This document shows positions 21,681 through 22,177 of a DNA stretch of 64,000 bases, piece by piece. The first letter of the stretch is position 1, and each line of letters starts with the position of its first letter. The notes below the pieces were generated by a model. It saw nothing but the letters and a program-made list of their open reading frames with translations. It did not search any database and was not told the origin of the DNA. This DNA comes from Bacillota bacterium (lineage in GTDB: Bacteria > Bacillota > Negativicutes > Sporomusales > CTSoil-080), in assembly GCA_017889625.1 (NCBI GenBank), contig JAGGAD010000002.1:119940-183939 (forward strand), in the 5' to 3' direction. Made by a program: the position numbers and the translations under genes.

Positions 21681-21711
21681 GTTGCAAATTGCAACAGTTT
21701 TGTGATACAAT
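21681..21711 (+). promoter_or_regulatory. Promoter with an overlapping palindromic operator upstream of marR-hgcAB
   Basis: A perfect palindrome GTTGCAAATTGCAAC (21681-21695) contains the -35 TTGCAA (21682-21687). An 18-nt spacer precedes an extended -10, TGaTACAAT (21703-21711). Confidence 0.55.
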
Positions 21712-21733
21712 CAAGACGAAGGAGAGATATCAC

Positions 21734-22177
21734 TTGGAAAACATAAACGATGTTAAAACGTTGCGAGAATCTATTCGAGTACTAGAAAGAAAGTTAGGCA
21801 TTCTTGACGAGATTAACGCTTGCTGTGGGATAACTTTCGCGCAATGCCATGCCCTTGTTGAAATAGGCCGGGCTGAGTCTATTTACTTAAATAAGCTTGC
21901 CGATATATTAGGGTTGGATAAAAGCACTATGAGCCGGACGATAAATAATCTGGTTAACAGCGGCATGGTTTTACGCGATATTGCTCCCGAAGACAGGCGC
22001 TTTATTACCATTAAGCTTACGGAAAAAGGAAACGAATCATTTCAGAGGATTGAAGCCAATATGAACGAATATTTTTTAAACGTGTATCAGTCTGTCCCGG
22101 AAGTAAAACGGGGCCAGGTGTTGGAAAGTCTGCAAATTCTAATTAAAGCCTTAGCGGATAGCCATTGCTGTGAATAA
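21734..22177 (+). CDS. MarR-family transcriptional regulator with a C-terminal Cys-Cys
   Basis: The MarR wHTH is present (LNKLADILGLDKSTMSRTINNLVNSGMV...DRR). The protein ends DSHCCE. TTG at 21734 follows AAGGAGAG, and the ORF-track start at 21689 would include the promoter. Confidence 0.8.
   Translation: MENINDVKTLRESIRVLERKLGILDEINACCGITFAQCHALVEIGRAESIYLNKLADILGLDKSTMSRTINNLVNSGMVLRDIAPEDRRFITIKLTEKGNESFQRIEANMNEYFLNVYQSVPEVKRGQVLESLQILIKALADSHCCE

Follow-up and report, generated by a model that had tools for sequence, protein, structure and literature searches.

The DNA analysed here, referred to as the window, is a contiguous stretch of 64,000 nucleotides from a member of the Bacillota. 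It contains the genes hgcA and hgcB, preceded by the gene for a MarR-type transcriptional regulator and followed by a gene for a GNAT acetyltransferase (Table 1). The translation of hgcA contains the cap-helix motif N(V/I)WCA(A/G)GK in the form NVWCAAGK. For the regulator gene we use the TTG codon at 21734 as the start, and the database gene call (P0001) begins at the same residue; a further in-frame TTG at 21689 lies inside the operator, is not used by P0001 and was rejected as a start. No terminator was found between the marR promoter and the end of hgcB, and marR is placed for co-transcription with hgcAB, which we infer from this arrangement. The region after hgcB (23644-23744) contains only a weak 5-bp hairpin, and a clearer one follows the GNAT gene, so that the transcription unit probably includes the GNAT gene as its last member. 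The surrounding island encodes two arsenic-type regulators of different families, the ArsR of a canonical ars operon (with the motif CVCEIE) and the MarR protein, and the two may respond to the same signal with different outputs, arsRCDA-acr3 in the one case and hgcAB in the other. Genes of the mer type were not seen in the island, and the window's genome contains no true arsM.

Table 1. Features of the marR-hgcAB region and of the neighbouring ars operon; positions count from the first nucleotide of the window.
Feature	Position	Strand	Remarks
Canonical ars operon arsR-arsC-arsD-arsA-acr3	15521-19516	+	2-6 kb upstream of marR-hgcAB
Intrinsic terminator, 14-pair stem then T-run	21537-21568	+	End of the upstream CMD/DGC unit
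Predicted operator O1, dyad GTTGCA-AAT-TGCAAC over the -35 box	21681-21695	.	Family consensus aGTTGyA-N3-TrCAAC
-35 hexamer TTGCAA	21682-21687	+	18-nt spacer to the -10
Possible degenerate second dyad O2, GTTTTG-TGA-TACAAT, over the -10	21697-21711	.	Putative
Extended -10 TGaTACAAT	21703-21711	+	-10 positions kept in 73-74 of 74 loci
Shine-Dalgarno sequence AAGGAGAG	21719-21726	+	7 nt 5' of the TTG start
marR_ars-type regulator gene, 147 aa	21734-22177	+	Stop codon 22175-22177
Signature codon C30	21821-21823	+	
Signature codon C31	21824-21826	+	
Signature codon C38	21845-21847	+	
Signature codon H39	21848-21850	+	
Signature codons C145 and C146	22166-22171	+	
marR-hgcA spacer, 19 nt	22178-22196	+	Only an RBS (AAGGGAG)
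hgcA, corrinoid methyltransferase	22197-23324	+	ATG at 22197; NF040863, 471.7 bits (cut-off 275)
hgcB, 2x[4Fe-4S] ferredoxin, Cys-rich tail	23338-23643	+	NF040864, 126.2 bits (cut-off 99)
PAT/ArsN1-like GNAT acetyltransferase gene	23745-24245	+	ArsN1b, 110 bits (below cut-off 210)
Putative terminator-like hairpin and T-run	24249-24264	+	3' of the GNAT gene; probable end of the unit

Upstream of marR, the preceding unit is closed by an intrinsic terminator, and marR-hgcAB therefore needs a promoter of its own. A preliminary description of the locus had proposed such a promoter, consisting of a -35 hexamer and an extended -10 element and overlapped by a perfect 15-bp palindrome in the layout of an autoregulatory operator, and all of these elements were recovered. 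The palindrome, GTTGCAAATTGCAAC, is a perfect dyad that can be read either in a 7-1-7 register (GTTGCAA-A-TTGCAAC, with 7-nt arms around a single central A) or in a 6-3-6 register. Among the promoter-like sites of the 4 kb that were scanned (20500-24500), the marR promoter alone carries the TG extension. Taken individually and within the window, the promoter match and the palindrome are no more than would be expected by chance: 12 promoter-like sites were observed where 11.6 were expected, the 15-mer was matched six times at three mismatches or fewer against an expectation of 3.3, and two chance-level promoter-like matches are located within marR. The significance of these elements consequently derives from their conservation in other genomes and not from the statistics of the window.

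This conservation was assessed by comparing the 160 nt located 5' of the best 80 genomic orthologues together with the window (n = 81). In 74 of the 81 upstream regions we found the arrangement aGTTGyA-N3-TrCAAC-tRTT-N3-T-G-n-TACAAT with the same distance between the dyad and the -10 element, and the combined motif keeps a constant distance to a short leader. In these 74 loci the operator cores TTG and CAA are invariant or nearly so, and dyad symmetry in the 6-3-6 register amounts to a mean of 4.91 out of 6 complementary pairs as opposed to approximately 1-2.5 in most other registers. The comparison supports the palindrome as a conserved, predicted operator over the -35 box. Two further dyads, phased 8 nt apart, reach 3.9 pairs, and one of them covers the -10 element. 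Furthermore, T20 and T21 of the promoter spacer (21698-21699 in the window) are conserved in 73 and 74 of the 74 loci, respectively. Sigma-70 promoters do not require a TT in the spacer, and because it is conserved nonetheless, a second, weaker binding site is likely here, for which the phased dyads are the candidates; the pattern would fit a pair of neighbouring binding sites or four half-sites in alternation. Across the orthologous loci (L001-L080) and at O2 in the window, the sequence RTTKTA-TGn-TACAAT forms this weaker dyad, which covers the -10 and is displaced by 16 bp relative to the first; in the window itself it is weak, with three of six pairs, and it is stronger in relatives.

With up to one mismatch allowed, a search of 957 kb of flanking DNA gave four matches to the motif other than those in marR promoters. 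Two of these are located upstream of hgcA in loci with the gene order hgcA-hgcB-marR (L037 and L075), and the operator thus stays with the head of the operon even where marR is not the first gene. The genome to which the window belongs (3.3 Mb, 98% complete) contains the motif a single time and yielded neither a paralogous regulator of the same subfamily nor a second target, which points to a dedicated local circuit. In agreement with the preliminary description, in which marR and hgcA were considered probably co-transcribed, the gap between the two genes contains only a ribosome binding site, and a second operator or promoter was also not detected in loci where this gap is long (up to 323 nt).

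The product of marR matches PF01047 with 43.6 bits (cut-off 24.6), which confirms both its earlier assignment as a MarR protein encoded directly upstream of hgcA and its distinctness from the ArsR-like type known from Pseudodesulfovibrio mercurii ND132. An ArsR/SmtB identity was rejected, as there is no match to PF01022 (HTH_5) and only a sub-threshold one to HTH_20 (21.4 bits, cut-off 27). Identity as OhrR (NF052638, 22.8 bits, cut-off 200; hgcAB and not ohr downstream) or as AdcR/ZitR (NF038251, 19.7 bits, cut-off 175) was rejected as well. A search of 5.8 billion proteins returned 820 relatives, most of them 55-70% identical and about 147 aa long, which originate from Clostridia, Negativicutes-type and other Bacillota and, in a few cases, from Bacteroidota. 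The C-terminus reads DSHCCE, and the preliminary description had seen in it a pair of vicinal thiols that could ligate Hg(II) or As(III). Two other cysteines, C30 and C38, turned out to be present in all 81 orthologues, and C31 and H39 in 79 each, whereas C145 and C146 are found in 71 and 69 (about 86%) and the C-terminal pair is missing in some 14% of the orthologues. The tail is less conserved than the N-terminal residues, and the conserved cysteines as a whole support the idea of a sensor for thiophilic metals or metalloids.

An AlphaFold2 model of the monomer (mean pLDDT 86.5) shows the canonical six-helix winged-helix layout, with helices at residues 2-20, 35-47, 52-59, 63-75, 97-120 and 123-142 and a beta wing. 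C30 and C31 are placed in the low-confidence loop between alpha1 and alpha2 (residues 21-34), C38 and H39 in the first turn of alpha2, and C145 and C146 in a disordered tail past alpha6. The model would accordingly bring two flexible thiol-rich elements close to the dimer interface, as expected of a metal(loid) site. Foldseek matched the model to generic MarR, SlyA, OhrR, AbfR and ZitR folds; there was no close solved structure among the matches, and the best profile match was a generic MarR at about 50 bits.

MarR proteins that are encoded in ars islands and contain conserved Cys36, Cys37 and Cys157 have been described as MarR_ars (Yu et al. 2021, bioRxiv 10.1101/2021.08.12.456183). The founding member, AdMarR_ars from Achromobacter deleyi As-55 (CP074375.1), represses its own gene and arsV, binds to both promoters and is released from the DNA by As(III) or Sb(III); Cys-to-Ser variants are unresponsive, and three cysteines are needed (bioRxiv 10.1101/2021.08.12.456183). 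Further examples include proteins from Clostridium and Paenibacillus, and the group has been linked to resistance to arsenic-containing antibiotics, while mercury, hgcAB, arsM or an operator sequence are not mentioned in that study (bioRxiv 10.1101/2021.08.12.456183). The MarR protein of the window is a probable member of this group: its C30-C31 and C145-C146 correspond to Cys36/37/157, matched by position pattern only, an ars operon is present in the island, and ars-type genes flank most orthologous loci. Common to both regulators are the MarR scaffold, a vicinal cysteine pair before alpha2, a C-terminal cysteine, the location in an ars island and the autoregulatory layout. They differ in cargo, which is hgcAB here and arsM in sister loci as opposed to arsV, arsN or arsP, in the additional invariant Cys38-His39 and the usually two C-terminal cysteines of the window's clade, and in the conserved operator defined here, for which Yu et al. 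give no counterpart.

More distant relatives, 30-33% identical MarR proteins from Bacillales, some of them plasmid-borne, are encoded beside an ArsO/ArsV-like monooxygenase or a permease in ars clusters. They retain the CC pair, Q37, H39 and the C-terminal CC and have a serine in the position of C38, so that the sensing site of the hgcAB/arsM clade may differ from that of the founder. A record labelled as a Stenotrophomonas rhizophila plasmid (CP031730.1, L094) encodes, in an ars cluster, a MarR protein that shares 95% identity with a Lysinibacillus protein and whose nearest relatives all come from Bacillales; an Achromobacter homologue is absent from the 120 matches listed, and the record represents either a recent transfer or a mis-assignment.

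ArsR2 (DND132_1054) from P. mercurii ND132 is an ArsR-type regulator that renders hgcAB arsenic-responsive, and its homologues have been found only in Desulfovibrionaceae (bioRxiv 10.1101/2022.10.17.512643). As in ND132, the gene for a Cys-rich winged-helix protein, here a predicted repressor, is located directly upstream of hgcAB in the same orientation, and a tie of hgcAB expression to arsenic is predicted. Unlike ArsR2, which belongs to the ArsR/SmtB family (PF01022) and has a four-Cys site in the ArsR fold, the window's regulator is a MarR protein (PF01047), and its clade is spread over Bacillota. Vicinal cysteines also occur in ArsR proteins that sense As(III) or MAs(III), i.e., AfArsR (Cys95/96/102), CgArsR (Cys15/16/55) and SpArsR (Cys101/102). 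The window's MarR resembles these in its CC pair and a distant cysteine on flexible termini, which would come together across the dimer, a likeness of chemistry only on a non-homologous scaffold. The view put forward in the preliminary description that a thiol-tailed MarR would be a different regulatory solution has to be abandoned, as the protein fits the published MarR_ars and MarR genes adjoining hgcA had already been mentioned, in one sentence and without analysis (Zhang et al. 2023, PMC10349881). This sentence is all that we found in the literature on MarR proteins in connection with arsM or hgcAB.

The gene downstream of the regulator was surveyed in 80 loci by tblastn and clustering. 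An ArsM-like methyltransferase is encoded in 33 of them, a shorter SAM methyltransferase in 12 and hgcAB in 21 (19 downstream of marR and two upstream); the cargo is a GNAT protein in 5 loci, a protein with the pattern C-GCAxxG-C-C in 4 and of another kind in a few. The ArsM from C. carboxidivorans P7 (L032), the sole representative tested, reaches 297.9 bits with NF008823 (cut-off 263). Genes for arsA, acr3, arsM or arsN-like proteins flank most of the 80 loci, and a gene for an ArsN1/PAT-like GNAT commonly comes next after the methyltransferase, just as one comes after hgcB in the window. It is readily seen that arsM and hgcAB are interchangeable as cargo of the regulator and that hgcAB here occupies the slot that arsM fills elsewhere. 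On a tree calculated for the regulators, hgcA linkage is clustered and requires eight changes, at least five of which are forced by well-supported branches, and it follows that cargo has been swapped repeatedly under the same regulator. The short SAM methyltransferase (205-228 aa), the third recurrent cargo, is encoded, for example, at 7477-8163 in L007 and at 7473-8090 in L026; the protein from L007 has a Cys-rich C-terminus and finds its best NCBIfam match, below the cut-off, in the DVU_1556 family. Two sister MarR proteins of Pelotomaculum propionicicum differ in their surroundings: that of C1 (L066) is followed by hgcAB, whereas that of MGP (L068) is an orphan followed by a convergent gene for a binding protein. 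The pair suggests that hgcAB was gained or lost recently in the position following this regulator.

Whether the same MarR accompanies hgcA in related genomes, a question raised in the preliminary description, received a divided answer. The HgcA model was run against 400 genomes from the same class and 400 from the same phylum, and 36 hgcA loci were sorted by the content of the 1.5 kb that precede hgcA, which yields rough proportions as queries were few and related genomes are not independent: about 10 of the 36 loci have a MarR with the cysteine signature and three to four a more divergent Cys-bearing MarR, an ArsR-type gene is present in 13, hgcAB directly follows acr3-arsC inside ars operons in four, and nothing was recognised in about five. 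On these figures, control of hgcAB by an arsenic-type system seems to be the norm in the phylum, with MarR ranking second in frequency among the regulators upstream of hgcA in the sampled loci. In one locus (L107), hgcA starts 23 nt after arsC, which is itself located behind acr3, with no regulator in between, and hgcAB is the distal part of an ars operon. In L104, L106 and L108, acr3 is found at a similar upstream distance; these three loci and L107 belong to one family, in which eight of eight sampled genomes contain hgcA. The divergent MarR encoded directly 5' of hgcA in L120, L122, L126 and L101 is about 30% identical to that of the window, has a single N-terminal cysteine (CGE.ITF) and in most cases the terminal CC, and may represent another lineage of Cys-bearing MarR proteins that was recruited to hgcAB.

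The reading that we favour, and that we consider reasonably probable, is that the gene encodes a homodimeric repressor of the MarR_ars type, which is released by a trivalent metalloid and controls its own unit together with hgcAB. The effector-free dimer would occupy GTTGCA-N3-TGCAAC over the -35 box, maybe extending to the weaker dyad over the -10, and would block RNA polymerase, such that the regulator's own unit marR-hgcA-hgcB, probably with the gene for the ArsN1-like GNAT, is kept off. Thiolates would then bind a thiophilic metalloid in its trivalent form, most likely As(III) or Sb(III); candidate ligands are C30 and C31 in the alpha1-alpha2 loop, C38 and perhaps H39 at the start of alpha2, and C145 and C146 in the tail, probably acting across the dimer. 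Binding of the effector would alter the spacing of the winged helices, the DNA would be released and hgcAB would be induced. Hg(II), Cd(II) or Zn(II) would likewise be ligated by five thiols, or disulfides would form between them. The family precedent and the gene context favour As(III)/Sb(III) over Hg(II) as the effector.

The regulator could instead sense Hg(II), the substrate of HgcAB, via the same thiolates, and the locus would then be a mercury-inducible methylation unit. Vicinal or clustered thiols are well established to bind Hg(II) very tightly, the cargo is hgcAB, and among the 22 hgcA-linked members of the family 21 have the C-terminal CC and five an extra CCxxC, which is present in only one of the 59 others. 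We nevertheless regard an Hg(II) sensor as unlikely, as the same signature and operator head arsM in more loci than hgcAB, no alignment column separates the hgcA-linked members from the others (the largest frequency difference is 0.50), the linkage to hgcA changed at least five to eight times on the tree, AdMarR_ars responds to As(III)/Sb(III), and the island contains ars genes with no mer genes seen.

Just as unlikely in our view is selectivity for methylarsenite or another organoarsenical in place of inorganic As(III), comparable to the MAs(III)-selective ArsR proteins with vicinal cysteines. It would suit a cargo of methyltransferases and ArsN1-like acetyltransferases, and a vicinal cysteine pair is enough for a two-coordinate MAs(III) site, as in SpArsR; the connection of MarR_ars with arsenic-containing antibiotics (bioRxiv 10.1101/2021.08.12.456183) points in the same direction. 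However, the effectors of AdMarR_ars are inorganic As(III) and Sb(III), the presence of at least three conserved thiols is suggestive of an S3 site, and a circuit in which the regulated ArsM produces the inducer would be less obvious.

It appears quite improbable that the protein is a redox or thiol-disulfide sensor in the manner of OhrR, MexR or E. coli MarR, which would leave the DNA upon cysteine oxidation. Many Cys-bearing MarR proteins do sense oxidants, the fold matches those of OhrR and AbfR, and an AhpD-like CMD gene is located upstream, but that gene is separated from marR by the terminator, the score with the OhrR model is far below the cut-off, most of the carriers are Clostridia-type genera with an obligately anaerobic lifestyle, and the cargo consists of methyltransferases in ars islands and not of peroxidases or efflux pumps. 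A structural or cofactor metal (Zn or Fe-S) that is held by the cysteines and needed for DNA binding, with no ligand-released sensing, is very improbable, for although five cysteines and one histidine are available and Zn is bound through the alpha1-alpha2 loop, alpha2 and alpha5 in the structural neighbours ZitR and AdcR, the AdcR model falls well short of its cut-off, vicinal CC is atypical for Fe-S/Zn ligand sets and typical for As(III) sites, and the context is that of ars genes.

The probable MarR_ars repressor upstream of hgcAB also bears on the question of what HgcAB is for. A native role in the methylation or detoxification of metalloids (arsenic or antimony), with mercury methylation as a side reaction, suggests itself because hgcAB stands in the arsM slot of a cassette of the type marR_ars-[methyltransferase]-arsN-like, with the same operator and sensor residues, and because hgcAB in the sampled hgcA-containing genomes of this phylum is almost always located behind an arsenic-type regulator or in an ars operon; we give this idea only a slim chance.

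Three things go beyond the literature that we searched: the connection of MarR_ars with hgcAB and arsM, the operator defined here and the additional Cys38-His39. How hgcAB is controlled and what purpose it serves are questions of mercury biogeochemistry, and the only regulator tested is ArsR2 from one strain of the Desulfovibrionaceae. Here, a second, non-homologous family of predicted arsenic-type repressors is found to head hgcAB operons across many Bacillota, and mercury methylation appears to be wired to an arsenic-type switch in many Firmicutes. Now that an operator is defined and five residues are candidates for the sensor, the control of hgcAB is open to direct test, and operator and regulator together could serve as a genomic marker to predict the timing of hgcAB expression in anoxic soils that contain arsenic and are contaminated with mercury.
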